Shown here piece after piece: positions 36,801-53,126 of a stretch of 64,000 nt of DNA (its first letter is position 1; every line of letters begins with the position of its first letter). Source of the stretch: a virus. The notes beneath the pieces were generated by a model that saw nothing but the letters and a program-made list of their open reading frames with translations, was not told the origin of the DNA and made no database searches. The DNA lies in IMG/VR virus record IMGVR_UViG_3300044617_001156, one strand, 5' to 3'. The position numbers and the translations under genes are program-made.

Positions 36801-39800
36801 AACCAAAAAATGATGATCTTTTACCACAGTCAAAACAAGAAATTATATTTGATAACCAATTAGTTGGTGCAGGAGAAATTGTTTTTGTTAATAGTGAATT
36901 ATCGGGTTCTATTGTAGTTTCTGGTGTAGGAAGTACAACGTTTGTCTATACAATTCCTTTTGCTCCAGATGAAAGTTCATATAACACATCTAATGGACTT
37001 TTTGAATATGAAAGGTTTACTGGTAAAGGAAAAATAAAAACAACCACTATAGAATCTGGCGGATCTAAGTATAAATCATTGCCTTCAATATCTGAAGTAT
37101 TATCAACTCAGGGTGAAGATGGTTTATTATACTCTAATGGTGATAGTATTGGTTCTGTGAGTAATGTTGAAATTCAAGATATTGGATTCTCATATCCTTC
37201 AGATTTCACTCTTCGCCCATCAGCAAAACTTCCTGATATTCTAAAACTTTATACTCTTTCAATATTTGATAGAATTGGTATTTCTTCTCGCGGAGTTAAT
37301 TATGTAATACCACCAGATTTGGTAGTTATTGATGGAAAAACAAATCAACAATTAACAGATATAGATTTATCTTATGAACTCGGAGATAGTGAAGTTAAAA
37401 TTAATAAAAATGTATCCGGAATTTATGATATAAATCCAATTGTTCTACCAGTAAATAATTCAAATGGTATTGGAATTAATTCGATTACTTATAATTCAAC
37501 CACCAAAAATGTTACTGTATACTTAAAACCAAGTTTCAGTGATGTAGAATCTTTCCCATTTGCCGTTGGTGAAAGAATTCTTATTGAAGGTGTTGGCGTA
37601 GCATCATCCATTTCCACAATTAAAGGATATAATTCAGAAAATTATAATTATTCTCTATTCACTATAACATCCACTGATCCTAATATTGGAGGATCTAATG
37701 GTTCCATCACTTATAATTTATCAGAGTACCTTTCAACCGGAGAGTCTCCTGGTATTGTTAGTATCAATGGATTTGTAGTACCAGAGAGATACTTCCCTAT
37801 TTTTAATATCTCTCTGAAAAAATTATCATTTAGAACTAGTGAGATTATTTCTTCAAATTCTGCAAGTGGTATAGTACAACTGTGGGATTTTAGAAATAAC
37901 AATCTAAAGGTTGCAACAAATAATGACTTCGTAGTTGGAGAAGTTATTATTGGCGAGTCTTCTGGGGCAAGTGCAGTAATTGATGCAGTTTATAGTTCTG
38001 ATGCATCTTATAATGTTGGATCTTCTTCCATTGTAAGAAATGGTTGGTTTAAGGAGACTGGTTTCTTAAACACAGATACTCAAAGAATTCAAGATAGCGA
38101 TTATTATCAGTATTTCTCATACTCACTAAAATCTGAAATTTCCTTTGATCAGTGGGAAGATGGTGTTAGCACTTTGAATCACACTGCGGGATTTAAAAAG
38201 TTTAGTGATCTTGTAATTAATTCATCTTCAGGATTTATTGGATTATCAACGACTCAGGATAAATCAGAATTTACTGGAATTGCTGATCTGTATAATGTTA
38301 AGAGCCTTCATTGCTTTGATGATTATGATTTGGTATCTGAAAATAATATTACGATAAGCAATAAGCAGTATTCAGATAGAATAAAATTTAATTCCAAAAT
38401 TATCCAAGACTATATTGAATCTATCGGCAATAGAGTTTTAAAAATTGATGATATAAGTTCCCAGTTTAATAGTAATCCAAGATCAACTAGATTTAGTGAA
38501 GTTGATTCATTTGACATTGATGAATATAGATCTAAAAAATATGTTATTTACATATCAGATAGAAGATTCCCGACTGAAAAAGAAACCCTTTTAGTCACTC
38601 TTCTTCATGATAATAATATTGGTTATTTAAATCAATATGCTAGAGTTGAAACTGGAGAAGATCTAGGATATTTTGATTTCAGTGTTAGTGGAACTGAAGG
38701 AAGTCTATTATTCTATCCAAATAAATTTAGTGTTAATAATTACAGTTTAGAATATACTTCTTTCGGAATTAAAGATTCCATAGCAGGAATAGGAACTCAA
38801 AACTTAGGCAATGTAGTAAAAATTCATTCACACACTTCCAATATTTCTGTTGGAAATACTACTACAACTGTTGTAGGAATTGCATCAACTTATAGATCTT
38901 CTAAAGTTTTAGTTCAAATTGGTGCAACAGACAAGTCTTACTTTGAATTTAATGAAATTACTTTATTGCATAATAATCAAGATGTTTTCTTTATTGATTA
39001 TGGGCAATTGACGACTGGAAACTTTAGTCCTTATTCTTCATCTGGAATAGGAACATATCACGCTTATTTAAGTGGGTCTAACTTAAATCTAGATTTTATA
39101 TTGAACAGTGCTTCATCAGTAGAATATAACATCAATTCAATTGTTGTATCTATAGCAAATACTTCCTCTACGGGAATCGGATCTACTGCAGTTGGCGGAA
39201 GTCTTCTAGATTCTAATTATGTTTCTATTGCTTCTTCAACATCACCAGTATCAACTAACATTGCTCAGCATAGTACAACTTATAATTCATCTTATTATGT
39301 TGTATGTGTAGAAGATACTACAAATAGTAATTACCAAATATCCGAAATTGTAGTTACTAATCATAATACAGATTCTACAATTACAGAATATGGAATTGTA
39401 GAATCTAATGGAATTCTAGGCGATTTTGATTCTAGTATTTCTGGAACAAATGTTTATTTGAACTTTACTCCAATCCCAAATATTCAATGTCAGATTAGAG
39501 TATTCAAGGTTCACTCTGGACTAGATGAGACTGAGGGTGTAATTAACTTCATTAATTCTGATATTGATTCTTCATATGGATTATATCAAGGAACTGATAT
39601 TGATATTAAGAGGGAATTTGATCTTACGCACAATCTTCTTCCTATCTTCCAGAAAGAATTCAATGCCTCTCAGACAAATATTGTTGATGTTACTAATGAT
39701 TTAATTTACGTTCCTGGACATTATTTTGTAACTGGAGAAGAGGTTGAATATTCTTATCAAGGTGGTCCAATTGGAATTGCTACAACAACAATCACTGGAA

Positions 39801-42800
39801 TTGGAACAACAGATAAACTACCAAGTTCTGTTTATATTGTAAAAGTTGATGATCTGAATGTAAAGGTAAGTGCTTCTGCATCTGAAGCTTTACGTGCTGT
39901 TCCAAATGTTTTGAATATTACAAGTGTTGGCATCGGCAGTACTCACTTATTTACTAGTAAAAATCAAAACGCAAAAGCATTAATTTTAATTGATAACGTA
40001 ATTCAGTCACCAATTGTCGCTACTGCAATTACAACAACTCTTGCATCTAACGTTCAAGTGTTTGATGACTCAATATCATTCTCCGGAATTACTTCATTCT
40101 TCGGTGGAGATATGATTAAAATTGGTGACGAAATTATGAAAGTGACAGGTGTAGGCATTGGAAGTACCAATGTAGTATCTGTTGTCCGCCCTTGGATGGG
40201 AACTGGTATTGCAACTCATGCCATTGGAGCATTAATAACTAAAATTCAAGGCAATTATAATATTATTGATAATAGTATTAGTTTTTCGGCACCTCCATAC
40301 GGCAATGTTCCTATTGAAAATCCAGACAAATTTGACGAAACTGACTATACCGGAATTTCCACAAGTTCTACATTTGGTGGTAGAGTATTCTTAAGATCTG
40401 GAGTTGAAAATTCTATCAATGAAACCTACAGTAAAAATTATATTTTTGATGATATATCAGATAGATTTGATGGATTCACTTCTGAGTTTAGATTGACTTC
40501 GCAGAAGAATAATATTGCTGGGTTCTCTACAAGCAATTCGGTTCTGCTAATTAATAGTATCTTCCAACTACCTTCACGTCCAGGGGCTATTAGTGTAATT
40601 GGTGGATACGATCTTTCTGAAACCAGTGGTATCAGTAGTGTTACTTTTGTAGGAACCGCAACTTCAAATACATCAGATATTAATGCATCCAATCTTCCTA
40701 GAGGAGGAATTATAGTTTCTGTTGGATCTACTAAGGGATTTGGATATCAACCATTAGTTTCTGCTGGTGGAACCGCAGTAGTTTCTATTGCAGGTACAAT
40801 TCAATCCATTAGTATTGGAAACAGTGGTTCTGGATATAGAAGTGGTTATCAAGTTGTAAATGTTGGTGTCGGCACTTCAAGTCTATATGATCCAAATATC
40901 CAATTTATTGGTACTGCAGCAGTAAGTGGTGGCCGCATTGTAAGTGTTGCTGTTACAAATCCAGGAACTGGATATACATCCACTAACCCACCATATGTAT
41001 TCTTCGATGCTCCACTTTCTTATAGTAATATTCCATTGATTTACAGTTCAGAGTCAAAATCTGGAGTGGGAACCGAAGCAGTTGTTGATATTGTCGTGGG
41101 ACAAGGATCAAGTGTAATTAGTTTTGAAATTAAGAATTACGGTTATGCATATCAACCAGGAGAAATTCTTACTGTACCAATTACTGGTGTTGTAGGAATT
41201 CCTACTAATTCAACATTAACTTTTGATGAATTCCAGATCAGTATTGAAAGAACTTATAATGATGAGTTTTCTGGATGGACTATTGGAGATCTTCAGGTAT
41301 TAGATCCTATTGACTCTTTATTTGATGGTGAAAGAATAGAGTTTCCTATCAAGATCAATGGAAATCAAACTACTATTAGATCAAAAATTGGATCAAATAT
41401 TGATGTGGAATCAACATTATTGATCTTTATCAATGATGTTCTGCAAGTTCCAGGAGAAAGTTATATTTTCAAAGGAGGAAGTATAATTACATTCACAGAA
41501 CCACCTAAGGAAACTGATACATCAAAACTATTATTTTATAGGGGAACTGGTGATGTTGATACTAGTTTTACTGATATTCTAGAAACAGTTAAACCAGGAG
41601 ATACTCTTCAGATTAATTCTGACGATTCATTATACAAACAAACAAAGAGATCTGTAAATGAAATTGTATCTTCAGACATCGTAAGAACAAATGTATATTC
41701 TGGAACTGGTATTTCTAATGATGTTAATTTACTGAGACCGGTGACTTGGTGTAAGCAAATGACTGATCTTGTAATTGATGAGGTCAGTGTGACTAAAGAT
41801 AGAGTTCAATATGAACCTTATATTTACCCAGTAACCAATATCATACAAAATGTCACATCATCTTCAACTGAAATATTTGTAGAAAGCGTCAAAACTTTCT
41901 TTGATAGTGCTGATGAATATATTCAAAATGGAACTGCAGAAAAACCTCAGAAAAAGGTCTTAATTGTATCTCAGGATGAACTTGTTGGTGCAGCTGCATC
42001 TGCCGTTGTTTCGGTTGGTGGATCAATAACATCAATTAGCATCATTGGTGGTGGTGTTGGATATACTACTGCACCATCAGTTTCTATCTCATCTCCTGTT
42101 GGAATCGGGACAACTTTTGCAACTGCTACTGCATCAATTACTGCAGGTGTAGTTACTAGCATTACCGTATCTTATTCTGGTTATGGATATACTTCAACTA
42201 ATCCACCTCAAGTTCTAATTGAATCACCAATACCAAAATATGAAGAGATAAGAGATGTAAGTTATAGTGGAGATTTTGGAATTATAACAGGTATTTCTAC
42301 AGTTACAACAGGAATTGCTTCAACGGGCATTACATTTGACTTGTTTGTTCCTCGGAATTCTTATCTAAGAGATCTTTCTATTAACCAAGTTGGTGTTGCA
42401 ACTACTGGTATTAGTGGAATTCAAACTGGTTATTATTTTATTATTGATAATTCCAATGTCGGAAACGGAGTAACTTCACTTAACAGTGGTGGATCTGTAG
42501 TTGGTCTTGGATCAACATACCTAGATAACATTTACCAAGCAGTTGCAGTTTCAATTGCCCAGACTAGTGTTCCTGGCGTAGGAGTTACTTATGTGACTCG
42601 AGTCACTGTAAGTGTTAGAAATTACAATGGATTAACTGGAATTGGACGTAGTTCTTATTTTGGAAATTATTCCTGGGGTAGATTATCAAATCTCACTAGA
42701 ACTGAACCAAACTCCTTTGGAATTTATAACAATGGTATTGCTGGTATTTCAACATCACCTACTGTAAGAAGATTCAATAAACTAAAGTATTCAAATTACA

Positions 42801-42808
42801 CCTCATAA
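30890..42808 (+). CDS. gp7: baseplate wedge initiator gp7-like giant structural protein (3972 aa)
   Basis: Position between gp6 and gp8; FYSSKGT..SFEILFRALYG, IQDSDYYQYFSYSLKS, YHYH-like HSPIIGWAYDGNPIYGPYG. Confidence 0.85.
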   Translation: MTESRIKISSIVENQLPDYVKEEFPLVSEFLSQYYQAIENQGSTLDILQNIDRYVKVDNLTNLTDSTQTTSDVSLFDTTINVESTYGFPDSYGLIMIDNEIITYKGKTATSFTECVRGFVGIEEYYNNDQLKFSDTNVETHSNGSVVENLSILFLKEFFNKVKTQVTPGFEDRSLNSEINQGLFIKQSNDFYSSKGTAHSFEILFRALYGKDVEVILPRDFLIQPSDAQYRITKDLVVEAIEGDPSDLVNLTLYQDSIYNIPESRGTISNVEKIIRGDKEYYVISLDFGYDNLNETGLTLGDFTVHPRTRNIVDIASGSDTLTVDSTLGFPSSGVLVVNLENGTQLSVNYESKSSTQFHGCIGITQDISKNSELNLDIFAFGYADIEQTQIVKVRVTGVLSNVLLDSPTKYYDKGDLIKIRTLGKETDDFRANKWLFNISSTHNIKSVVELDSLNFKYRIDLFDQHLFYIGDSVTIIPPQAQPVSEVKGVISSIKNSTSIIVSTEQRLISFVPFQIRKNIVNVLSSNNLSLNKYTANVQNTYLDGINSVYVTSPSLPYYLNNSLIIRDKIVTFSGTFFGDTLSIPNHKFYTGDRIVYNPDDANNKLDLSSGKYFVRRVDLNTIKLSRSLSDLFNDSYVSVSGTVTNNVFYYEPFTFENLSAKTVQTQKLIRQIANPVTTNTRTITPAGFTGIFINGVELLNYKSNDYIYYGPITSVDVLSGGFNYDAINPPLMQVSDSVGSGATAYCIINGSLSRIDVIDGGINYLETPRVIITGGNGFGASAVANLESYDYSVSFNSNQSAGYVNLANNTIGFSSFHKLNSGDELIYQTNQQQGIGGITTNSSYFASIVDASTIKLHTKLSDAVTGINTINLSSPYGEGVHTLKSKFKKRKIRSLTVINTGSNYRNRRLSVDSVGISTANNSINIANHNFNNKDVVAYQTTGSAINGLNTSKYYYVRKIDNDNFRLFDQYTTDDKQLIDFYYETNQPVNLTSVGSGLHIFRDKPIQVQLIGSVGVTTFTNQTFDAELQLIFRGPVESVFVEDGGSGYGSEEILNYNRQPEFILKSGTGAEVRPVILNGSIAEVFVVSSGTGYNSPPDLFVESPGGYGAILTPVVDQGLLIEVKVISGGVGYGQSTTTIDVLSAGQEAKFNANIKSWNVNLVERNIDSEEIRDDDGIIAESLKEDFGLEYSHAYAPRNLRRSAFSEKFVSGEAIYVPDLNIQNGRETLSDAHSPIIGWAYDGNPIYGPYGYSTPSGGSPKLLKSGYSISLQDNRPSLNLYPEGFFVEDYEYIGDGDLDQSNGRFCITPEYPNGTYAYFATVSDIIETAGIFANYRKPTFPYAIGDYYHSTANSLNFSPLSNQDDFDLNTTGLLRNTTPYYLTSDNSSYEFIKNPNKIKEQNSKVTNVSSGAVTSIDIINSGDDYNVGDSILFNSSGTGGRGAKAYVSSIEGKEIVGISITTTEIDNVELIGNIGISSSQLDLKSGDFLTIQGKFPNDFSISQRIDVIGNKLILSSGIGSASYTGIVTYMSVYPPINASVNNLFYLGNEIIKILDTDFANSRVRILRNQNGTTGVSSYSPGYALTESSTKFIYNSAGLAVTFFDNRELYFNPVESVGLGTTSGVGIGLTLYFTNPGSGGTSIFVPTRTIYIPGHEIPTGTILLYRSNNGSPLSISTDGISSFNLTNNSIVYSARISEDLIGISTVLVGLGTTGTFVGVGSTNVGTLLYFTGIGTGVYHSLKLNPTKTVKADLSKNTVNVSTAETHGMLIGESISITASPQLSTSVSVYYNDYNRRLYINPLSFGAADVDIVSKTITLENHKLATGQSVIFRQTTPVGGLVDNKIYYVIYYGKNSIKLAESIYDASIDKVLNITSTGSGTISPINPQIFVTRNNTINFDLSDSSLSFTNNTVDYSAFDFKIYKNPNFTEEFNKTLNSSTFNVIKTGIIGIDTNASISLTLNDEFPDRLYYRLEPKNDDLLPQSKQEIIFDNQLVGAGEIVFVNSELSGSIVVSGVGSTTFVYTIPFAPDESSYNTSNGLFEYERFTGKGKIKTTTIESGGSKYKSLPSISEVLSTQGEDGLLYSNGDSIGSVSNVEIQDIGFSYPSDFTLRPSAKLPDILKLYTLSIFDRIGISSRGVNYVIPPDLVVIDGKTNQQLTDIDLSYELGDSEVKINKNVSGIYDINPIVLPVNNSNGIGINSITYNSTTKNVTVYLKPSFSDVESFPFAVGERILIEGVGVASSISTIKGYNSENYNYSLFTITSTDPNIGGSNGSITYNLSEYLSTGESPGIVSINGFVVPERYFPIFNISLKKLSFRTSEIISSNSASGIVQLWDFRNNNLKVATNNDFVVGEVIIGESSGASAVIDAVYSSDASYNVGSSSIVRNGWFKETGFLNTDTQRIQDSDYYQYFSYSLKSEISFDQWEDGVSTLNHTAGFKKFSDLVINSSSGFIGLSTTQDKSEFTGIADLYNVKSLHCFDDYDLVSENNITISNKQYSDRIKFNSKIIQDYIESIGNRVLKIDDISSQFNSNPRSTRFSEVDSFDIDEYRSKKYVIYISDRRFPTEKETLLVTLLHDNNIGYLNQYARVETGEDLGYFDFSVSGTEGSLLFYPNKFSVNNYSLEYTSFGIKDSIAGIGTQNLGNVVKIHSHTSNISVGNTTTTVVGIASTYRSSKVLVQIGATDKSYFEFNEITLLHNNQDVFFIDYGQLTTGNFSPYSSSGIGTYHAYLSGSNLNLDFILNSASSVEYNINSIVVSIANTSSTGIGSTAVGGSLLDSNYVSIASSTSPVSTNIAQHSTTYNSSYYVVCVEDTTNSNYQISEIVVTNHNTDSTITEYGIVESNGILGDFDSSISGTNVYLNFTPIPNIQCQIRVFKVHSGLDETEGVINFINSDIDSSYGLYQGTDIDIKREFDLTHNLLPIFQKEFNASQTNIVDVTNDLIYVPGHYFVTGEEVEYSYQGGPIGIATTTITGIGTTDKLPSSVYIVKVDDLNVKVSASASEALRAVPNVLNITSVGIGSTHLFTSKNQNAKALILIDNVIQSPIVATAITTTLASNVQVFDDSISFSGITSFFGGDMIKIGDEIMKVTGVGIGSTNVVSVVRPWMGTGIATHAIGALITKIQGNYNIIDNSISFSAPPYGNVPIENPDKFDETDYTGISTSSTFGGRVFLRSGVENSINETYSKNYIFDDISDRFDGFTSEFRLTSQKNNIAGFSTSNSVLLINSIFQLPSRPGAISVIGGYDLSETSGISSVTFVGTATSNTSDINASNLPRGGIIVSVGSTKGFGYQPLVSAGGTAVVSIAGTIQSISIGNSGSGYRSGYQVVNVGVGTSSLYDPNIQFIGTAAVSGGRIVSVAVTNPGTGYTSTNPPYVFFDAPLSYSNIPLIYSSESKSGVGTEAVVDIVVGQGSSVISFEIKNYGYAYQPGEILTVPITGVVGIPTNSTLTFDEFQISIERTYNDEFSGWTIGDLQVLDPIDSLFDGERIEFPIKINGNQTTIRSKIGSNIDVESTLLIFINDVLQVPGESYIFKGGSIITFTEPPKETDTSKLLFYRGTGDVDTSFTDILETVKPGDTLQINSDDSLYKQTKRSVNEIVSSDIVRTNVYSGTGISNDVNLLRPVTWCKQMTDLVIDEVSVTKDRVQYEPYIYPVTNIIQNVTSSSTEIFVESVKTFFDSADEYIQNGTAEKPQKKVLIVSQDELVGAAASAVVSVGGSITSISIIGGGVGYTTAPSVSISSPVGIGTTFATATASITAGVVTSITVSYSGYGYTSTNPPQVLIESPIPKYEEIRDVSYSGDFGIITGISTVTTGIASTGITFDLFVPRNSYLRDLSINQVGVATTGISGIQTGYYFIIDNSNVGNGVTSLNSGGSVVGLGSTYLDNIYQAVAVSIAQTSVPGVGVTYVTRVTVSVRNYNGLTGIGRSSYFGNYSWGRLSNLTRTEPNSFGIYNNGIAGISTSPTVRRFNKLKYSNYTS

Positions 42809-42829: not shown

Positions 42830-44383
42830 ATGTCTGCAATTATAACTGACCAATTAAGAATACTGAATGCGAAGAGTTTTGTTTCGGGAATAACAACCAC
42901 CGATAATGCTTATTACTCTTTTATAGGATTACCTAACGCAACTGATTATTCTTCAACCTGGGATGTTACTCCTCCTGCACCTATTGATAATTTTGATCAG
43001 GAGAATGACTATTACGATACTATGATTGCTTTGAAGAGAATTAGATCTGATGACGTAAGACAGATGATTAGGAAGGTTACCTGGTCATCTGGAACAACTT
43101 ATGATATGTATCGCCACGATATTAGTCGCAATAATACTTCAAAACCATCTGGAGCTACAAGTCTTTATTACGCAAATTATTACGTATTGAATAGTGATTA
43201 TCGAGTTTATATTTGCCTAGATAATGGAATAAGTCCAGAAACTCCAAGTGGAAGACCTTCACTGGATGAACCAACTTTCACTGATCTAGAACCAAGATCG
43301 GCAGGAAATAGTGGCGATGGATATATTTGGAAATATCTTTATACAATTAGACCTAGTGAAATTGTAAAATTTGATTCTACTGATTACATACCCGTTCCTA
43401 TTGACTGGGAAACGAGTGATAGGGACTCCGCAGTTAGAAATAATGCAACAACAAGCGGACAGTTGAAGGTTATAACAATCACTAATCGTGGTGTTGGTGT
43501 TGGAACTGCAAACAGAGTTTATAGTAGAGTGCCAATTAGAGGTGATGGAACTGGAGCAGAAGCAACTATTCTAGTCAACAGTGAGTCAAAAGTAGAATCT
43601 ATTACTATTTCAAATGGGGGATCTGGATATACTTATGGTTCAGTTGATTTAGAAACTGGTGGTGTACCCACCGGAACAACAAGACCTACTTTTGATGTAA
43701 TCATTCCACCAAAAGGAGGTCACGGAGCAGATATTTACAGAGAACTTGGTGCTTTTAATGTTTTAGTTTATTCTAGAATTGAAAATGATGACCAAAATCC
43801 AGATTTTATAACTGGAAACCAAATCGCGAGAATTGGTTTAGTTGAAAACCCAGAAGCGTTCAATTCAACTAATATACTTGATGTAAATAGGGCAAGTGCA
43901 GTATATGCTATTAAATTATCTGGTATAGCATATAGTACAACCACATTTGATGCAGATTCAAGAATTTTCCAAACAGTTGGAACAGGAATAACTGCAGTAG
44001 GAAGAGTTATCTCTTACAATCAAAATACTGGAGTTCTTAAATATTGGCAAGACAGAACCTTCGTTGGATTCAATACTAATGGAACTCAAAATAATTCTCC
44101 ACAATATGGATTTAACTTGACTAGATTTACTGCTTCTCCATCTACTGGAGGAAGTGTTACGATTACTGGAGGTTCTTCGAATCTGGGAATTGATACTACG
44201 TTTACTGGCGTCACCACCACTATAAATAATAGAAATTATTATCTGGGACAGTCCTTCGCAAATGGAGTGTCCAATCCAGAAGTTAAAAAATACTCTGGAA
44301 ACATTATTTACGTGGACAATAGACCATCAATAACCAGGTCTCAAAACCAAAAAGAAGATATAAAAGTTATTTTGCAATTCTAA
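42830..44383 (+). CDS. gp8: baseplate wedge subunit gp8
   Basis: MSAIITDQLRILNA, VYICLDN, DGYIWKYLYTI, QKEDIKVILQF; CATAAATA upstream. Confidence 0.93.
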   Translation: MSAIITDQLRILNAKSFVSGITTTDNAYYSFIGLPNATDYSSTWDVTPPAPIDNFDQENDYYDTMIALKRIRSDDVRQMIRKVTWSSGTTYDMYRHDISRNNTSKPSGATSLYYANYYVLNSDYRVYICLDNGISPETPSGRPSLDEPTFTDLEPRSAGNSGDGYIWKYLYTIRPSEIVKFDSTDYIPVPIDWETSDRDSAVRNNATTSGQLKVITITNRGVGVGTANRVYSRVPIRGDGTGAEATILVNSESKVESITISNGGSGYTYGSVDLETGGVPTGTTRPTFDVIIPPKGGHGADIYRELGAFNVLVYSRIENDDQNPDFITGNQIARIGLVENPEAFNSTNILDVNRASAVYAIKLSGIAYSTTTFDADSRIFQTVGTGITAVGRVISYNQNTGVLKYWQDRTFVGFNTNGTQNNSPQYGFNLTRFTASPSTGGSVTITGGSSNLGIDTTFTGVTTTINNRNYYLGQSFANGVSNPEVKKYSGNIIYVDNRPSITRSQNQKEDIKVILQF

Positions 44384-44389
44384 AAAATT

Positions 44390-47300
44390 ATGCCTCAAGA
44401 AACTAATCTCAATGTATCTCCATATTTTGATGATTTTGATGCGAATAAGAACTTTTATAAGGTTCTTTTTAAACCTGGACAACCAGTACAAGCAAGAGAA
44501 CTAACCACTCTACAATCAATACTCCAAAATCAAATTGAAACCTTCGGAAATCATATTTTCAAAGAGGGTTCATTGGTAATTCCCGGTGGATTGAATTATA
44601 TTCCTAACCTCATAGGAGTGCAAATTCAACCTACTTTTAATGGAGTATCTGTAGATAGTTACATTGATAATTTATTAAATCGGGACATTATAGGAGAAGA
44701 TTCTGGTGCTAGAGCTAGGGTTGTAAGAATACTCAAAGCAGGAGAAGAGGGTAATCCATTTACCCTTTTGTATTGTACATTTAAATCTGATGCAAATTCT
44801 TTCTTAAGTCAGGAAAATTTACTAACCGAGTCTGTAGTATCTCCAGGATTCTCTACATTAACTCAGATAAATTCAGGACAATCTTTCTGTACGACAATTG
44901 TAGAAAATCCAAATGTACTTGGTTCTGCTCTTATTGTAAATGAGGGAGTATATTTTATCCGTGGATATTTCATAAATGTACCAACTCAAAATATTATTTT
45001 AGATTGGAACAATAATTTTCCGTCTTATAGTGTTGGATTTGAAATATTTGAGGAAATTATTACCGCAGATGATGATTCCTCTTTATATGATAATGCAAGA
45101 GGATTTTCTAACTTTGCAGCTCCTGGTTCAGATAGATTCAAGATTACTGCAGTATTAGATAAAAGACAGATTACTGTTAATGAAACCAATTCAGTAACCG
45201 ATAAAAATTATGTTGAAATTTTTAGAGTTCTTGAAGGAGATCTTAAAAAATTAAATCGCAATGCTCAATATGATGAAATTGCAAAGGAATTTGCCAGAAG
45301 AACTTATGATGAATCTGGAGATTATTATGTAAGACCATTTACAATAGAAGTAAAAGAATCTTTAAATGATTTCCTAGGAAACGATGGTGCTTATTTTCCC
45401 GAGGAAATTACTTCTCAGGGACTAACACCAAGTGAAGACTTAGGTGTTTATAAAATATCTGCAGGTAAGGCATATATTCAAGGATATGAAGTAGAAAATT
45501 TAGGAACTCAACTTTTAGATTTTGTAAAACCAAGAACTACAAAAGAACTTAGAAATCAATATATCAATTTTGCCAATGGTTCATCATTTACTTTAAATCG
45601 TGTTTATGGAGCTCCTTCTTTAGAAATAGATGGTTCTTATATCGTAAGCCTCAGAGATTCTAGAGTTGGCGTATCTCAGACTACTGCTCCGGGGAAAGAA
45701 ATTGGATTGGCAAGAGTTTATGATTTTGCTTTAGAATCTGGTCTTTATAATGAAAGTGTGGAGAATCTCAATGAATGGGATATTTCATTGTATGATATTC
45801 AAATGTATAATGAATTTACATTGAATGAACCAACTACACTAACGATTCCAACTCATATTAAAGGAAAAGCAAGTGGAGCAACTGCGTTTTTACGATATGC
45901 AACATCTAACTCTGGAATTATCACTGCATACAATATTGAAGGAAACTTCCAAGTTGGAGAAAAGTTAATATTTGATGATAAAGAAACTAATGCAAGAGTT
46001 TCAATAGCAGTAACTGAGTATGGGGTATCTGATGTAAGTTCTTTATATGGAATTGTTGGTACAGCATATACTTTTACTGGAGATGTTAAACCCATTGTTG
46101 TTGCAGATTTTGGTCCAGTTTCAATTAGTACCGCTTCTGTTGGAATTAGCACTGTACGCACAAGTAATCCAGATTTATTCTTTAATGTAGCACTAAAGAA
46201 AAACGATATAGTAACATATAATGTTCCTGGAATTTCTACTTTTACATACTCACGGGTAGTATCAGTATCAGAAAAATCATTTACTATTGCAGGAATTACC
46301 ACCGTTGCCGGAATATGTGAAGGTGCGTTACCTTCATCTGCGGTTAATTTAAATAATATCTTCTTACTAAAGTCTCCGCTTAAAGAATCATCAAATAACA
46401 CTTTATTTACACCTCTACCCAAAGAAAATGTATCAACGGTAGATTTAACAGATTCATATCTGTTTATTAGAAGAGAGTTTGACGTACAAATTTCGGCAAA
46501 TGCAGTTACAATTTCTCCGACGGCATTAGAATCAACCGAGTTTTTCGTTCCATTTGATGAGGAAGACTATGTGTTAGTTAGGAAAGATGGAGAATTAGAA
46601 CCACTTTCTTCAGATAAGTTCTCATTTACTGATAATAATAGAGGGCTTTCAATATTTGGTCTTGGAACTAATAGTGATGCAAGACTCATAGCAACTATTC
46701 AAAGAGTTAAAATTAAGGCAAAACAAAAGAATAAGATTAAAATTTCAACTCTTACTCTAGATAAATCTTCAAATCCAGGTTCTGGAATTGGCGCTACTAC
46801 ATTAAATGATGGATTAGTTTATGGAAATTATCCTTATGGAACAAGAGTTCAAGACTCTGAAATTTGTTTAAATTATCCGGATGTAAGTAAGATTTATGGG
46901 GTTTTTGAATCAAGTAATACTTCTGATCCTATTTTACCATCACTTTCATTAATTGATATTAATGGTGCAAATGGAACAGTTGATGATTTAATTATTGGTG
47001 AGGAAATTTATGGATCTAATAGTCTTGCTGTGGGAAGATATGTAGGTAAAGTGAATTCAACCACAATAAATTATGTTTTGATTTCTGATAATACATTTTT
47101 GGAGGATGAAATAATTACCTTCAGAGAATCTGGAACAAGTGGAACTATTAATACTATAGAGATAAGTTCTAATGATATTTCGGACAACTATACTTTTTCT
47201 CAAGGAACAAAAAATTACATTTATGATTATTCATCCTTACTATTAAATAAAGATAAACTTCCACCATCCAAAAAAATAACACTTGTTTTTGAAAGAGGAG

Positions 47301-48424
47301 AATATTCAGACTCTGATACCGGAGATCTGACTACTATAGATTCTTATGCTCAGTATGATTGGTGCGAAGTTCCATTTACAGATGGAATCAATAATGGCGA
47401 CACAATTGATTTACGTCCTAGAGTCGCTAATTACATAGTTTTAGAGAATTCTAGGTCACCATTAGAATTCTTAGGTAGATCTTTTGGTGTTACTGGAAAT
47501 TCTGCACGAAATATTATCGCATCAGATACTTCCATAGTATCTAATTATTCTTATTACGTAGGAAGAATTGATAAAATTTATCTATCCAGAGATAATACCC
47601 TTCAAGTGAGACAGGGAGAACCATCAGATAATCCACTACCACCAGAACCAATTGAAAATGCTCTGGAAATTGCTACTGTGATTATTCCACCTTATCAGTG
47701 TAACGCAGAAAGTGCTTTAGTAATTCTTACTGAGCATAAAAGATATCAGATGAAAGATATTGCAAGACTCGAAAATAGAATTAAGAATCTAGAGTATTAC
47801 ACTACATTATCATTACTGGAAAAAGATACTTCAACTCTAACTATTAAAGATGTGAATGGTATTGATAGATTTAAGAGTGGTTTATTTGTAGATAACTTTA
47901 AGACTACGACATTCCAAATTAAAGAAACGGAAGTTAAGAATAGTATTGACATGAAGAGAGGTGAGTTAAGACCAACACCATATACGACTGAAATTGATCT
48001 TTTATTAGGTGATAATACTCTTCTAAATAATGAAGATACATTTTTTACATCTTATGACGCCAAGTACGCTACTGATTTAATTGGTATCGGAGTGACTCGT
48101 AGTGGTATTAATCCCACTAGCGCCGGCAAAGGTGTGATTACGCTAAATTATAGAGAAGTAGTTGAAATATCACAACCATTTGCAACAAGAATTGAAAATG
48201 TGACCCCTTACTTCGTAACAGTTTATGATGGAATTATGGATTTAAATCCATCATCAGACATCTGGGTTGATAGAACTCAACTAAGTCCATTAACAGTAGA
48301 AGGATTTACTGCACAAATGACTACAACTACATTACAACTTACAAAAGAACAAATAGACACTCAAGGCGGATGGAGTCCAATCGTATGGGATTCTTGGTCT
48401 GACCAGTGGGCTGGTAGTTTCTAA
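44390..48424 (+). CDS. DUF4815/VrlC-like structural protein, N-terminal part
   Basis: NLNVSPYFDDFD..KNFYKVLFKPG.PVQARELT, ARRTYDESGDY, RIKNLEYYTTLSLLE, RFKSGLFVDNF. Confidence 0.85.
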   Translation: MPQETNLNVSPYFDDFDANKNFYKVLFKPGQPVQARELTTLQSILQNQIETFGNHIFKEGSLVIPGGLNYIPNLIGVQIQPTFNGVSVDSYIDNLLNRDIIGEDSGARARVVRILKAGEEGNPFTLLYCTFKSDANSFLSQENLLTESVVSPGFSTLTQINSGQSFCTTIVENPNVLGSALIVNEGVYFIRGYFINVPTQNIILDWNNNFPSYSVGFEIFEEIITADDDSSLYDNARGFSNFAAPGSDRFKITAVLDKRQITVNETNSVTDKNYVEIFRVLEGDLKKLNRNAQYDEIAKEFARRTYDESGDYYVRPFTIEVKESLNDFLGNDGAYFPEEITSQGLTPSEDLGVYKISAGKAYIQGYEVENLGTQLLDFVKPRTTKELRNQYINFANGSSFTLNRVYGAPSLEIDGSYIVSLRDSRVGVSQTTAPGKEIGLARVYDFALESGLYNESVENLNEWDISLYDIQMYNEFTLNEPTTLTIPTHIKGKASGATAFLRYATSNSGIITAYNIEGNFQVGEKLIFDDKETNARVSIAVTEYGVSDVSSLYGIVGTAYTFTGDVKPIVVADFGPVSISTASVGISTVRTSNPDLFFNVALKKNDIVTYNVPGISTFTYSRVVSVSEKSFTIAGITTVAGICEGALPSSAVNLNNIFLLKSPLKESSNNTLFTPLPKENVSTVDLTDSYLFIRREFDVQISANAVTISPTALESTEFFVPFDEEDYVLVRKDGELEPLSSDKFSFTDNNRGLSIFGLGTNSDARLIATIQRVKIKAKQKNKIKISTLTLDKSSNPGSGIGATTLNDGLVYGNYPYGTRVQDSEICLNYPDVSKIYGVFESSNTSDPILPSLSLIDINGANGTVDDLIIGEEIYGSNSLAVGRYVGKVNSTTINYVLISDNTFLEDEIITFRESGTSGTINTIEISSNDISDNYTFSQGTKNYIYDYSSLLLNKDKLPPSKKITLVFERGEYSDSDTGDLTTIDSYAQYDWCEVPFTDGINNGDTIDLRPRVANYIVLENSRSPLEFLGRSFGVTGNSARNIIASDTSIVSNYSYYVGRIDKIYLSRDNTLQVRQGEPSDNPLPPEPIENALEIATVIIPPYQCNAESALVILTEHKRYQMKDIARLENRIKNLEYYTTLSLLEKDTSTLTIKDVNGIDRFKSGLFVDNFKTTTFQIKETEVKNSIDMKRGELRPTPYTTEIDLLLGDNTLLNNEDTFFTSYDAKYATDLIGIGVTRSGINPTSAGKGVITLNYREVVEISQPFATRIENVTPYFVTVYDGIMDLNPSSDIWVDRTQLSPLTVEGFTAQMTTTTLQLTKEQIDTQGGWSPIVWDSWSDQWAGSF

Positions 48425-48440
48425 TAAGGAGGAATAAAAA

Positions 48441-51400
48441 ATGGCATCACGTTCAAGCGGAAGTGGAAGAGGCGGTAGCGGCGGCGGCGGCGGTAGCGGC
48501 AGCGGAGGAGGCGGCGGCGGCGGCGGAGGCGGCGGCGGTGGTGGAGGAGGTGGAGGCGGCGGCGGCGGAGGCGGCGGCGGCGGCGGAGGAGGAGGCGGCG
48601 GCGGTGGAGGCGGCGGCCGCGGCGGAAGCAGTGGTGGATCCAGCAGTAGCAGCAGTGGCGGTGCCAGCAGAACATCCTCACCAAGTAGATCGGCTGGCGG
48701 TGGAGCATCATCTTCACCTTCATCTTCACCTTCATCCTCAACTTCAGCTTCAAGATCAGCACCATCCTCACCTAGAGGAGTTGCCACTTCTGCACCCGCA
48801 AGAACATCTTCTATAGGTCCTGGAGGCGTTGTAGCAGGCGTTGGATTCAATAATAGTTTAACAACGAACGCTACCAGAGTTAGCACTCTTACGCAAGCAG
48901 TTAATTCAATTGCCGCAGGAGCGCAGTCTTCATTTATTTCACGACCAACGCTAACCTCTTTTTTTGGTCGTCCAATTGCAGGATTTACTGTTGTCAATAA
49001 TGAGAGTGGTGCCGATAGAGTCAAAGCCGTTCGGGCGCCGATTCAGCGACCGGGGGAACCGACAAAAACACCAACAGGTGATCCGGAGAGAGGAGATCCG
49101 CCCAAACCTTGCCCAGATCCAAATACACTAATTTTATTATCTGATGGATCACAAAAAAGAGCTGGAGATCTTCAAGTCGGAGATACACTAAGAACTCAAC
49201 ATGAGGATACTCTAGAGTGGGGAGAACATAATGTTACTTATGTAGAAATTGTAAGTGCGGAAAAATTAATCCTTACTTTTGATAATGTAGAGTTTGTCTG
49301 TTCTACTTCTCACAAGTTCTATGTGGAAGGTAAAGGGTGGACTGAAGTTAACCAAATGGAAATTGGTGACTCTGTACTTGGTTTGGAACAGTCTCATAAG
49401 TTACTCGAAGTAAAGGAAGGAACTTATGGTGATGTAGTTGTTATTCAAGTTGAAGACGCACATACTTATATTTCTGAAGGACTACTATCTCACAACAAAA
49501 CCATTGGTGATTTTCCTAGTGGTGGTGGTGGCGGAGGTGGCGGCGGTGGCGGTGGCACCTTTATTCCAGGAACTCCAACAATATTTGAAGAAACTACTAC
49601 CGGAACAATATCAAGAACTGGATTTGCTACAAGAATTAACACCACATTTAACAATAAGAGTTTAGGTAATAAACTTTTAAGTCTGGATGTTCTTCCTTAC
49701 ATGAGATCCAGAAACATCGAATTTATTGCAAAAAAACTGAAACCAAACACTCTGTTATATCCATTCTTTGATGGTCGAAATGTTTATGAGTACATAGTAC
49801 CTAAAATTCTTGAAATTGAAATGATTTCGGGAACTTTTGTTACCGGAGAAACTGTTGTCGGAGCTTTTCTTCTCGCCAATCCTTCAAACATAAATACAAC
49901 ATCAACTCAATCATCAATTCAGTTCCGTCTTGCTGCTTATAATCACAAGTATGGACCTTTTAATGCACCAATTGATGTATATTCTTCAAGTCCATATAAT
50001 AGGGCAGAACAACTTCAACCATACTCACCATCATCTACAACACTAAATGTAGATACAACAAGTCTTTCTGATTTATCTCTTGGAACTTATGGTGGTAATG
50101 TTTTTGTTGGAATGATTTTGATTGGCAAACAAAGTGGAGCAGTATCTAGAGTTAGAGAAATAAGACTTGTATCAGATAATGTCGGTACAGTTATTGGTTC
50201 TTTCTTTATTCCTAATCCAAATAGAGCAGGAAATGCAAAATTCTCTACTGGAAATAAAACATTCAGATTAACTGATAATCCAACCAATGGTACAATTGGT
50301 GGTACTTTATATACTTATGCAAATGCTAACTTCTTTGCCGATGGATTAATAACTCAGGCACAAGAGACTATCTTATCCATACGTAATATTGAAACTCAAA
50401 TTGCCGTTGTAAGTGAAATTACGACAACTACAAATACAACAGTAACATCTGTACCAGGAACTCCAGTATTTGTTCCTAATTTACCCCCACCACCACCTCC
50501 CGCACCAGCTCCATCCCCAACGCCTATCCCGACCCCAACTCCAGTACCACCAGTACCAATACCAGTACCAAGACCAGTACCAACAACCCCGACTCAACCA
50601 AAGCAAGTAACTGTTCGATCTGTTGGTGGTGATGGTGGCGGCGATGATCCACTCGCACAAACATTTAAAATTGGTTCCGACGAAGACATAATTGGAAGAT
50701 ATGTTACTTCAGTAGATCTTTTCTTCTACACCAAATCATCAGAACTTCCTGTTTATGTTGAACTAAGACCAGTTGAACTTGGAGTTCCTACAAAAAAAAT
50801 CTACCCATTTAGTAAGGTAGAAATATTACCACAAAATATTAATGTTTCAACTGACGGAACAGTAGCAACAAGAGTTACTTTCCCCGCACCAGTATTCCTT
50901 GAAGGTAATAAAGAACATGCATTAGTTCTTCTTGCAAGTACAAGTGATTATAGTGTCTTTATATCAAGACTTGGTGAAATTGATATTACAACAGCAGCAC
51001 TTCCAGAGTCTCAACAGAGGTTAGTTGCAACTCAACCAACTCTTGGATCTCTCTTTAAATCTCAGAATGCTGCTACTTGGTCACCTTCTCAGTATGAAGA
51101 CCTCAAGTTTAATCTTTATTCTGCTGTTTTTGAACCTAGTGGAACTGTAAGTTTCTTTAATCCAGAACTGAATAGAAGTAATGACCAGATTGCCATTCTT
51201 CGTAATAATGCATTAGACATTGAATCCAGAAGAGTTAGAGTTGGTTTAGGAACTACATTATCAGTATCAACCATTTCAGATCTAACTGAAGGAAGTTTTG
51301 TAAGACAAAGAGATACGAATGCAATTGGCGATTTTGCTTATGTAACAGGTATAACTACCGGTTCCTTAACTATTACTAACTCTGGTATTGGATATACTCC

Positions 51401-53126
51401 ATCTATAGGAGTTCAAACTTACTCTAATGTTTCACTTACATCTATTGATGGATATGGTAGAGGAGCAACAGCAAATATTACAGTTACCAATGGGATTATT
51501 ACTGCTGCCGGAATTTCTTCAGGTGGTACCGGATATCAAGTCGGAGAAATACTAACTGCCGATGCGATTGGTATTACTTCAATTGGTAGAAATTTAAGAC
51601 TCTCTGTTGGTCAACTTTTTGCATTCAATGAATTAGTAGTAGATAATGTACAGGGCGAATTCCAAGTTGGAGTTGCAAAGTCTATTCAATACTTTAGTAC
51701 ACTTCCAGGAATTGGATATACTGACCTTAATGGAGGTTCAGTATTTGCAAATGATATTATTGCAGAAAGAGAAGGACTATATGTTAATGTGAAACATAGA
51801 AATCACGGAATGCACGCTTTAACTAACGTGGTTCGTATTTCTAATGCTTTTTCCGATATTGCTCCCATCAAACTGACCAATGATGTTGAAAGAGACTTCA
51901 CAGGTAACCTTGTAGTTACTGGACTTACCACTTCTTTCAATACTTTTGAAAATGTTGGTATTTCTTCCACAAATCCAGGTTATCTTGTAGTCAACTCAGA
52001 AATTATTTCATATACTGGAGTAGATGGAAATTCCATTACTGGTATTACTAGAGGTGTTGATTCAACACTTCAAATCAGACATCCGTCAAATTCTTTTGTT
52101 TATAAGTATGAACTCGCCGGAGTTTCTCTGAGACGAATTAATACCACGCATACACTACAGGATGTAACTGATATTACTAAAGAAAATACTTTAGATTCTT
52201 ATTATATTAAAATTGACCATTCGACTAATGGTGTGGACAGAAGTAGCAATGTAAGTTTCCCTAAACTTTACTTTAACTCCACAAAGTCAACGGGTGGTTC
52301 AATTATTGAAGCAACTCAAAATATTCCATATGATATTGCTCAACCAATCGTTCAAACTTTCACACCACCACAAACAACTATTACTGCCTCATTGAGGACG
52401 ATTAGTGGAACAAGTATTGATGGTTCAGAAGAATCATTCTTAGATAGAGGAACTCAAGTTATTAAGTTAAATCAAAATAACTTCTTCGAAAATCCAAGAA
52501 TTATAGCATCTAGAGTCAATGAAAGACTTTTCCTGAATAACTTAATTCAGGGAAATAAATCACTACAACTCACTTTAAATTTATCAACAACAAATCAATA
52601 CTTATCTCCAGTTATTGACCTTGATAGAGTGGGAATGATTTTAGCATCAAATAGAGTTAATGCACCAGTAACAGCTTATTCTCTAGATGAAAGAATATCT
52701 CTCATAGAAACTGATCCTAATGCATTTGTATATGTTTCCAAACCAATTGGACTTGAAGTTCCTGCAACGTCTATTAGAGTTATTGTTTCTGCGCATTTGA
52801 ACATTTATAATGATCTAAGAGCATTATTTGCTATTATGAAAGATCCAAATGAAACTCCAGTTTATTATCCCTTCCCAGGAAATGGAAATATAAGTGGTGA
52901 TGGTAGAACTATTAACGTTTCATACAATGATGGAAGACCTGATCTTCCACTTAAAGTTACTTCAAAACTTGGATTCTTAAGTGAAGAACTGAATTTCCTT
53001 GACTATGAATTTACTGTGAACAATCTTGAATCGTTTAAATATTTTAGCATAAAACTCATAGGTGCTTCAACCTCTCAAACATATCCACCAAGATTTAGAG
53101 ATTTAAGAATTATTGCTCTTGCATAA
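48441..53126 (+). CDS. DUF4815/VrlC-like structural protein, C-terminal part, with poly-Gly leader and Hint domain
   Basis: TAAGGAGG RBS; PYMRSRNIEF, DPLAQTF, LGSLFKSQN..TW.PSQYEDLKF, PPRFRDLRIIALA. Confidence 0.85.
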   Translation: MASRSSGSGRGGSGGGGGSGSGGGGGGGGGGGGGGGGGGGGGGGGGGGGGGGGGGGGGGRGGSSGGSSSSSSGGASRTSSPSRSAGGGASSSPSSSPSSSTSASRSAPSSPRGVATSAPARTSSIGPGGVVAGVGFNNSLTTNATRVSTLTQAVNSIAAGAQSSFISRPTLTSFFGRPIAGFTVVNNESGADRVKAVRAPIQRPGEPTKTPTGDPERGDPPKPCPDPNTLILLSDGSQKRAGDLQVGDTLRTQHEDTLEWGEHNVTYVEIVSAEKLILTFDNVEFVCSTSHKFYVEGKGWTEVNQMEIGDSVLGLEQSHKLLEVKEGTYGDVVVIQVEDAHTYISEGLLSHNKTIGDFPSGGGGGGGGGGGGTFIPGTPTIFEETTTGTISRTGFATRINTTFNNKSLGNKLLSLDVLPYMRSRNIEFIAKKLKPNTLLYPFFDGRNVYEYIVPKILEIEMISGTFVTGETVVGAFLLANPSNINTTSTQSSIQFRLAAYNHKYGPFNAPIDVYSSSPYNRAEQLQPYSPSSTTLNVDTTSLSDLSLGTYGGNVFVGMILIGKQSGAVSRVREIRLVSDNVGTVIGSFFIPNPNRAGNAKFSTGNKTFRLTDNPTNGTIGGTLYTYANANFFADGLITQAQETILSIRNIETQIAVVSEITTTTNTTVTSVPGTPVFVPNLPPPPPPAPAPSPTPIPTPTPVPPVPIPVPRPVPTTPTQPKQVTVRSVGGDGGGDDPLAQTFKIGSDEDIIGRYVTSVDLFFYTKSSELPVYVELRPVELGVPTKKIYPFSKVEILPQNINVSTDGTVATRVTFPAPVFLEGNKEHALVLLASTSDYSVFISRLGEIDITTAALPESQQRLVATQPTLGSLFKSQNAATWSPSQYEDLKFNLYSAVFEPSGTVSFFNPELNRSNDQIAILRNNALDIESRRVRVGLGTTLSVSTISDLTEGSFVRQRDTNAIGDFAYVTGITTGSLTITNSGIGYTPSIGVQTYSNVSLTSIDGYGRGATANITVTNGIITAAGISSGGTGYQVGEILTADAIGITSIGRNLRLSVGQLFAFNELVVDNVQGEFQVGVAKSIQYFSTLPGIGYTDLNGGSVFANDIIAEREGLYVNVKHRNHGMHALTNVVRISNAFSDIAPIKLTNDVERDFTGNLVVTGLTTSFNTFENVGISSTNPGYLVVNSEIISYTGVDGNSITGITRGVDSTLQIRHPSNSFVYKYELAGVSLRRINTTHTLQDVTDITKENTLDSYYIKIDHSTNGVDRSSNVSFPKLYFNSTKSTGGSIIEATQNIPYDIAQPIVQTFTPPQTTITASLRTISGTSIDGSEESFLDRGTQVIKLNQNNFFENPRIIASRVNERLFLNNLIQGNKSLQLTLNLSTTNQYLSPVIDLDRVGMILASNRVNAPVTAYSLDERISLIETDPNAFVYVSKPIGLEVPATSIRVIVSAHLNIYNDLRALFAIMKDPNETPVYYPFPGNGNISGDGRTINVSYNDGRPDLPLKVTSKLGFLSEELNFLDYEFTVNNLESFKYFSIKLIGASTSQTYPPRFRDLRIIALA
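48504..48617 (+). repeat. (GGN)38 poly-glycine tract
   Basis: 114 nt of in-frame GGC/GGA/GGT codons; extreme local GC. Confidence 0.95.
49110..49496 (+). other. Hint (intein-like) domain, 129 aa
   Basis: Starts CPDPNTLILLSDGSQKRAGDLQVGD, has block B STSHKF, ends VVIQVEDAHTYISEGLLSHN followed by K. Confidence 0.88.

Follow-up and report, generated by a model that had tools for sequence, protein, structure and literature searches.

A predicted Hint domain related to bacterial intein-like domains in the split VrlC-like baseplate gene of an uncultured freshwater T4-like phage

Introduction

How does a giant structural gene of a phage come to be divided in two, and what would a self-processing domain do near the front of its second half? 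These questions are raised by a 64,000-nucleotide stretch of viral DNA, IMG/VR virus record IMGVR_UViG_3300044617_001156 (hereafter, the window). Here, a VrlC-like/DUF4815 gene exists as two open reading frames (ORFs), ORF1 and ORF2, and the second of these contains a glycine-rich leader followed by a Hint domain. VrlC is the name used for the family in the literature. In phage A511, immunolocalisation placed one homolog at the baseplate (PMC4621102), and the family is regarded as a component of the double-layered baseplates of cyanomyophages and pelagimyophages (PMC4621102, PMC7029224).

A preliminary description of the locus inferred that a virion protein matures by autocatalysis, with its Gly-rich leader shed or covalently transferred. 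Judged from its relatives, the domain looks less like a required step of maturation than like a dispensable insertion that was acquired repeatedly. It is probably an active, type-A bacterial intein-like (BIL) or PT-HINT-like element, which excises itself from the precursor. Studies of BIL-type Hint domains have covered only a few proteins, from bacteria and ciliates. The VrlC-like family adds a natural comparison series, with five split and Hint arrangements in one baseplate protein. This series makes it testable whether such domains cut or join virion proteins, why a near-constant lysine lies beside the cleavage site, and how endonuclease-free Hint domains spread between low-complexity linkers. 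In addition, protein engineering could make use of a self-processing domain of only 129 aa whose outcome depends on a lysine.

Results

A split gene encoding a three-module protein

The giant VrlC-like baseplate protein consists of three conserved modules (A, B and C), joined by two hypervariable, low-complexity linkers. In the window, these parts are distributed over the two genes as follows:

44390..48424, plus strand: ORF1, the N-terminal half (module A) of the VrlC-like/DUF4815 giant baseplate protein, 1344 aa
48422..48443, plus strand: split junction, with two stops, a ribosome-binding site (RBS), an in-frame TAA and the ATG of ORF2
48441..53126, plus strand: ORF2 precursor, 1561 aa, comprising leader, Hint, linker, module B, Pro-rich linker 2 and module C
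48441..49109, plus strand: leader, residues 1-223, low-complexity Gly/Ser/Pro/Ala/Arg, the upstream part of hypervariable linker 1
49497..49697, plus strand: post-Hint part of linker 1, residues 353-419, matching in alignment the last part of the low-complexity linker in single-gene homologs
49698..50540, plus strand: module B, from YMRSRN (residues 420-425) to ~residue 700, 43-44% identical to single-gene homologs
50541..50645, plus strand: linker 2, Pro-rich in translation and Hint-free in the window, with a GC peak at 50400-50700
50646..53126, plus strand: module C, from DPLAQTF (~residue 736) to the end, 41-46% identical to single-gene homologs

Together, ORF1 and ORF2 span the full profile of the family. 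ORF1 matches Pfam DUF4815 at 2.2e-57 and covers positions 1-1149 of the 2056 in PHROG 358 (E=0), while residues 383-1561 of ORF2 cover positions 1167-2055 (1.5e-248). The location, directly after gp8, is that of a VrlC-like gene. In the cultured cyanomyophages S-SSM7 and SynMITS9220M01, the gene after gp8 is a single one of 2505 and 2542 aa, respectively, and ORF1 is 40-44% identical to these homologs over residues 1 to ~1340. In the single-gene homologs, the motif found at the end of ORF1 is followed by a linker of 60-80 aa rich in Thr, Arg, Gly and Ser, which leads into the sequence found 3' of the Hint domain in the window. The alignments to both phages thereby bear out the earlier statement that cyanomyophage homologs are single polypeptides with a variable, low-complexity linker at exactly this point. 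The frame is likewise uninterrupted across the point of the split in a marine single-virus contig.

At the junction, ORF1 terminates within the conserved module A, in ...WAGSF, and is followed by TAA TAA (48422-48427). A strong RBS, AAGGAGG, occupies 48427-48433, and the ATG of ORF2 lies at 48441, 16 nt past ORF1. A TAA in the frame of ORF2 (48435-48437) lies just 5' of this ATG. As the two ORFs lie in different frames, no single frameshift is able to fuse them, as the preliminary description had argued. Recoding or frameshifting as a means of producing a fused protein was also considered and is ruled out by the stops in both frames.

The junction is not peculiar to this assembly. Contigs of four other runs, from different studies, have 0-2 differences over 48000-48446 plus 48632-49800 and none within 48000-48446, so that stop, RBS and ATG are identical, which settles the earlier concern that the junction might be a mis-assembly. 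A 38-kb contig encoding relative P0006 has the identical 16-nt gap. Among further relatives, two contigs (L007 and L008) have two TAA stops, then GGAG, then ATG, and another two (L009 and L006) have one TAA, then GGAG, then ATG. Because the arrangement of stop, RBS and ATG recurs in independent metagenome assemblies, the split is genuine: the VrlC-like gene is really divided right after module A.

There is next to no chance that mis-assembly of the GGN repeat that follows has produced the split or the reading frame. It is true that short-read contigs break within 48447-48631, that this interval was masked in the cross-run comparison, and that the length of the repeat comes from one assembly. 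However, the junction lies upstream of the repeat, is identical in the contigs of the four other runs, and is kept in relatives that have no GGN repeat. In addition, relatives share the N-terminus of ORF2 (M-A-x-R).

The 129-residue segment as a Hint domain

The segment that follows the leader has these features:

49110..49496, plus strand: Hint domain, residues 224-352, 129 aa, type-A BIL-like / PT-HINT-like
49110..49112, plus strand: Cys224, predicted Cys1 nucleophile, with Pro223 at -1; invariant in alignment A1
49311..49313, plus strand: His291, predicted block-B histidine in the motif S-T-S-H; invariant column H77 of alignment A1
49491..49499, plus strand: His351-Asn352 (block G), followed by Lys353 (+1)

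Structure prediction confirms that this segment has the Hint fold of the HINT superfamily. An AlphaFold model of residues 215-361, built with a ten-sequence alignment, is all-beta with a mean local confidence (pLDDT) of 87.6 and a predicted template-modeling score (pTM) of 0.81. A Foldseek search of the model against the PDB gave 66 matches at E<=0.001, and the ~45 listed are all inteins, BILs or Hedgehog autoprocessing domains, with template-modeling (TM) scores of up to 0.85. The best match among those listed is BIL2 of Tetrahymena (E 3e-11, TM 0.82, 24% identity), and the next are the Ssp DnaB mini-intein, gp41-1 and the BIL domain 2lwy. Sequence searches of the PDB returned 2lwy at 2.6e-5 and BIL2 (6y75/6tmm) at ~3e-5. 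These results, together with the profile matches, agree with the earlier identification of a Hint domain closest to the BIL and PT-HINT types and devoid of a nucleophile at +1.

The predicted catalytic residues lie where a Hint domain would have them. Cys224 aligns with Cys1 of inteins and BILs, and the role of His291 is likewise placed by alignment to these proteins. The block-B TxxH feature is found at His291, except that the residue three positions before it is Ser and not Thr. The stops, RBS, 38 Gly, Cys224, His351-Asn352, Lys353, 12 Gly and conserved body that had been described, with their coordinates, were all found in the sequence.

Weaker Pfam matches of the Hint fragment are to Hom_end_hint, Intein_splicing and Hint. 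On the whole of ORF2, Pfam also gives a sub-threshold match to AXH (19 bits, cut-off 33), which was set aside as spurious, given that several Hint models match this part of ORF2 and that it folds as a Hint. No second Hint-like segment was found in the window by tblastn. In a search of cultured phages with the Hint, no VrlC-like gene contained a counterpart; the matches were terminase inteins, of which those of Corynebacterium phages match at 2e-9 by tblastn, and three unrelated proteins.

A subfamily with a lysine beside the cleavage site

An exhaustive search with the Hint gave 1525 cluster representatives at E<=0.001 and 383 at E<=1e-10. The counts for the family given here and below refer to 152 full-length domains taken from the best matches. 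Cys is present at position 1 in 151 of these, and the domain ends in His-Asn in 151 as well. Lys is found at +1 in 123 of the 152 (81%) and at +1 or +2 in 145 (95%), while Cys, Ser or Thr is at +1 in only three, all of which have Ser. Family members start with C-[PV]-x-P, and the motif T-x-H-E-D-T-x-E is invariant in alignment A1. The Hint of the window is assigned to a large phage subfamily of BIL-like Hints, which has its own conserved motifs and occurs in virion proteins.

Proteins of the family carry one to four copies. The tail past the domain spans 1 to ~1960 residues (median 112), and 15 domains lie <=10 residues from the C-terminus. In IMG/VR, 15 loci with a Hint of the family were found. 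Among the papers covered by a literature search, which was not complete, none reports a Hint domain in a VrlC-like protein or in a cyanophage structural protein; the phiCbK inteins in the literature are ordinary terminase and RNR inteins.

Members also occur in other layouts. Viral contigs of up to 168 kb (L015:619-6393, also L016-L021) encode a 1925-aa protein that ends with a Hint plus two residues (T-K), a terminal layout like that of Hedgehog in which His-Asn and Lys are still kept. C-terminal copies are also present on four bacterial genome contigs (L022-L025: Sphingomonadaceae, Aequorivita and a Pseudomonadota metagenome-assembled genome), with poly-Gly or poly-Pro before the domain and [IV]-K plus 3-9 residues after it; these may be prophage fibre proteins. 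Other metagenome proteins (P0013-P0015, P0031-P0039) have two to four tandem Hints separated by short, Gly- or Pro-rich spacers, and P0014 and P0015 among them resemble fibre or internal virion proteins from other phages.

Gain and loss of the Hint, and selection on it

Five arrangements of the VrlC-like gene were found. Two of these are unsplit: (i) lacks a Hint, and (ii) carries one in linker 2 (P0177-P0180). In (iii), the gene is broken at linker 2. In (iv) and (v), it is broken at linker 1; (iv), the arrangement of the window and 13 relatives, has a Hint in the leader, and (v) has none (P0021, encoded by L006, and P0022, both of which retain a leader). Most cultured relatives have neither split nor Hint. 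In the third arrangement, seen in L004 and L005, gene 1 ends with a Hint, a basic tail and a fragment of an S74 chaperone, and the second gene begins at DPLAQTF.

Linker 1, the site of the Hint in the window, differs in length and sequence in every homolog and is thus hypervariable and not a conserved site. In other lineages, linker 2 is a second site for Hint insertion and for gene splitting (Hints in P0016-P0020 and P0177-P0180). As genes are naturally split at linker 1 (window) or at linker 2 (L004), breakage at the linkers is tolerated.

In a tree of Hint domains, those of linker 1 form one supported clade (100/92), while those of linker 2 fall in at least two other clades, mixed with the Hints of unrelated proteins. 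It follows that there were at least three separate acquisitions. In a tree of modules B and C, rooted with unsplit homologs, the Hint-less P0021 and P0022 nest deep inside the Hint-bearing clade (starred branches). In these alleles, the pre-Hint motif R-P-Q-E-P-T is contiguous with the post-Hint motif P-Q-P-P-T-x-S-P-T-P-D-P-G-F, which makes an empty site. Since Hint-less split alleles nest among Hint-bearing ones, the split is independent of the Hint. A functional link between split, poly-Gly and Hint, which was implied earlier, is not supported: close relatives have the split without a Hint, or the Hint without poly-Gly.

Dispensable as it looks, the domain is well kept. For the window against L007 or L009, the ratio of nonsynonymous to synonymous substitution rates (dN/dS) is 0.12-0.15 in the Hint, 0.17-0.24 in module B and ~0.10-0.11 in module C, and ~0.5-0.6 in the leader and the post-Hint linker. 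The Hint is, therefore, under purifying selection as strong as that on the structural modules.

One member of the linker-1 clade deserves separate mention. P0012, a 1501-aa metagenome protein on its earliest branch, has Ser and not Lys at +1, and from this residue it could splice like a canonical intein.

The proposed reaction

The Hint of the window is likely to be active, to judge from Cys1 and His-Asn (each in 151 of 152 domains), the invariant block-B His and the low dN/dS. Its chemistry and products can be inferred from the established chemistry of inteins and BILs (PMC4031507, PMC7664689). Here, Cys224 would form a thioester with Pro223 by an N-S acyl shift, assisted by His291, and Asn352 would cyclise with the help of His351, cutting the bond to Lys353. 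The classical branched ester would need Cys, Ser or Thr at +1 and so cannot form here. The thioester would then be hydrolysed, which results in cleavage, or be attacked by the new alpha-amine, which results in ligation without a nucleophilic side chain. The main products expected are a free leader, a free Hint and a body that begins at Lys353. Aminolysis, which has been reported for type-A BILs, may re-join some of the leader to the body. The logic would be that of a selfish intein: the chemistry would be kept because an unexcised insertion would harm the baseplate protein, and, with no gain to the host from the Hint, loss would be possible.

Several points weigh against this account. Pro at -1 is known from intein expression work to slow the N-S acyl shift. 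The window copy has Pro223 in this position, whereas in the family Pro is rare there (7 of 152 domains) and Ser, Gly or Thr prevails; this copy might thus be cut inefficiently at its N-terminal junction. The near-universal Lys at +1 or +2 is not accounted for by simple cleavage. On the Hint fragment, PT-HINT scores 23.5 bits (7e-5), which is below the cut-off of 27.7. Neither a homing endonuclease nor another mobility mechanism is visible. Finally, the location of the protein in the virion is deduced from gene order and from the papers on VrlC homologs.

Alternative readings

The conserved lysine might itself be the nucleophile. In this alternative, the epsilon-amine of the conserved Lys (+1 or +2) would attack the Cys224 thioester, and cyclisation of Asn352 would leave the leader isopeptide-linked to the body on Lys353, with the Hint freed without hydrolysis. 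The phage subfamily, defined by C-[PV]-x-P, T-x-H-E-D-T-x-E and S-H-N with Lys at +1 or +2, would then carry out a new cis reaction with a built-in Lys nucleophile and an upstream part that becomes isopeptide-linked. Virion proteins would thereby use a form of protein splicing that is based on lysine, which is unlikely. The residue counts at +1 and +2 speak for it, and Lys is kept even where only 2-10 residues follow His-Asn (L015-L021, L022-L025). In Hint folds generally, as known from intein structures, the +1 side chain adjoins the scissile N-junction. The leader also stays joined to the body in Hint-less alleles. Moreover, the closest solved structure, BIL2, is reported to form an isopeptide with a Lys epsilon-amine (PMC8616854). 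However, the nucleophilic Lys of BIL2 sits in another domain, and its own +1 residue is Met. The argument is purely inferential; the Lys could instead aid folding, solubility or Asn cyclisation, and the earliest-branching member of the linker-1 clade, P0012, has Ser at +1.

Another reading is that the Hint is a domesticated maturation device, in which the leader keeps the ORF2 half inactive or guides assembly and its removal by the Hint is a required, timed step. The Hint is as conserved as the structural modules and was retained as the linker-1 clade diversified, and C-terminal self-cleaving modules are common in phage fibres, with an S74 chaperone fragment following the Hint in L004. Nevertheless, two Hint-less alleles lie inside a Hint-bearing clade, which shows that the phage can do without it; conservation of the leader is poor, in sequence as in length; and most cultured relatives have neither split nor Hint. 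A required step is thus quite unlikely. It is very unlikely that the domain is catalytically dead and persists in the mature baseplate protein for a structural or spacing role. The acyl shift may be impeded by Pro at -1 and the profile scores are sub-threshold, but the catalytic positions are all kept here and in 151 of 152 relatives, and a structural role would not need Cys1 and His-Asn at the exact ends of the domain. Finally, splicing of leader to body through a +1 nucleophile, as in a canonical class-1 intein, is highly improbable. The C-terminal motif of NCBIfam intein_Cterm (TIGR01443) scores 17.5 bits on the Hint fragment, above its cut-off of 15.6, mini-inteins are among the best fold matches, and the empty-site alleles resemble intein presence and absence. 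Against this, Pfam Intein_splicing scores 15.1 bits, far below its cut-off of 35.8, there is no endonuclease domain, and only three of 152 relatives have Ser at +1. With Lys353 at +1 and an insertion in a hypervariable, low-complexity linker instead of a conserved site, the domain falls outside the class-1 inteins.

Comparison with known Hint systems

The self-removing insertion that is favoured here most resembles the type-A BIL domains, which were reportedly described by Amitai et al. in 2003 and by Dassa et al. in 2004. Type-A BILs, such as 2lwy of Clostridium thermocellum, have in common with it the Hint fold, an N-terminal Cys, a block-B His and a C-terminal His-Asn (PMC4031507). They likewise have no Cys, Ser or Thr at +1, are small and endonuclease-free, and lie in hypervariable regions (PMC4031507, PMC7765530), the location known for BILs (PMC7765530). 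All sequence-level features of type-A BILs thus appear in the window copy. Unlike the BILs of bacterial secreted proteins, this one is in a phage virion (baseplate) protein, has a near-universal Lys at +1 or +2 in its family, and has the invariant T-x-H-E-D-T-x-E motif and the C-[PV]-x-P start. BIL2, from the polyubiquitin-like BUBL1 locus of Tetrahymena thermophila (6y75/6tmm), likewise has Cys1, a terminal Asn and no +1 nucleophile, and reportedly resolves its thioester with a Lys amine (PMC8616854). BIL2 differs in that it is flanked by ubiquitin-like domains, one of which it conjugates to substrates, whereas the flanks here are low-complexity linkers of a baseplate protein.

The best Pfam match of the window copy is PT-HINT (PF07591), the pre-toxin Hint found in polymorphic toxins (Zhang et al. 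2012, PMC3482391). Relatives at 50-57% identity pass its curated cut-off; P0013, P0014, P0036, P0070 and P0086 do so with 29.7-45.3 bits. PT-HINT domains are predicted to release whatever sits downstream, as is proposed for the Hint here. Unlike in PT-HINT proteins, there is no toxin domain or secretion-system context, and a 1200-aa structural body (PHROG 358 positions 1167-2055) follows. By the score of this copy and by its context, the domain is not a member of PT-HINT.

Mini-inteins (gp41-1, NrdJ-1; Dassa et al. 2009, PMC2677866) and phage terminase inteins have the same fold and size and are phage-borne. Mini-inteins and fractured genes also share with the locus a polymorphism of presence and absence between close relatives and a split gene beside the Hint. 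However, gp41-1/NrdJ-1-type and terminase inteins are true inteins, with a +1 nucleophile and conserved sites, and in fractured genes it is the intein itself that is split. Here, an N-fragment ending gene 1 and a C-fragment starting gene 2 are not found; instead the Hint is whole, lies entirely in the second gene and starts after 223 residues of ORF2. Re-joining of ORF1 and ORF2 by a split intein was considered and rejected, because ORF1 has no intein fragment and so the Hint cannot re-join the two halves.

Leader, glycine tracts and minor observations

The leader of the window contains 70 Gly, 45 Ser and 17 Pro, and a Pfam search of it matched no family. It is 33-38% identical to those of relatives, which are ~50-140 aa long and have no poly-Gly. 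Two glycine tracts flank the Hint:

48504..48617, plus strand: 38-Gly run, residues 22-59, in mixed GGC/GGA/GGT codons, with local GC up to 0.77
49521-49556, plus strand: 12-Gly run, residues 361-372

The figure of 38 Gly is that of this assembly alone, as the GGN repeat at 48447-48631 was masked when contigs of different runs were compared. At the second tract, one strain (run X13) has 1+5+6 = 12 extra bases at window positions 49506-49518, with substitutions nearby, and hence Gly tracts differ in length within populations. Two further ORFs, a poly-Pro ORF of 230 aa on the minus strand (48332-49024) and an Ala/Glu-rich ORF of 117 aa on the plus strand (48463-48816), are readings of the GGN repeat in other frames and were dismissed as genes.

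In L004 and L005, gene 1 ends with the opening motif of the S74 intramolecular chaperone (L004:14640-14962, L005:7790-8112), and an ORF of 83-87 aa with a weak Peptidase_S74 match overlaps or adjoins it. The S74 chaperone domain seems to be divided between two ORFs in these two independent samples.

Source and neighbouring genes

The phage behind the window is a T4-like myophage of fresh water, as yet uncultured. With cultured cyanomyophages its DNA shares only 66-72% identity, and the stretch is present in 20 lake and freshwater metagenome runs from 17 studies. The genes around the split form a T4-like structural module in the order gp7-like, gp8, ORF1, ORF2, a 281-aa gene, gp14 neck, gp15 and small terminase. 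Two genes lie upstream:

30890-42808: gp7-like baseplate gene, 3972 aa, with a YHYH domain, upstream of gp8
42830..44383, plus strand: gp8-like baseplate wedge gene (Pfam Phage-Gp8 1.6e-12; PHROG 438, baseplate wedge subunit, 7e-167), directly 5' of ORF1

The 281-aa gene after ORF2 has no Pfam match and is syntenic with a gp13-family gene (PF26809) of related contigs. A location after gp8 and before the neck genes is common to the VrlC-like proteins of T4-like cyanophages, pelagimyophages and A511-like phages. Unlike in these relatives, the gene in the window exists as two genes, with a Hint insertion and a greatly expanded Gly/Ser linker.

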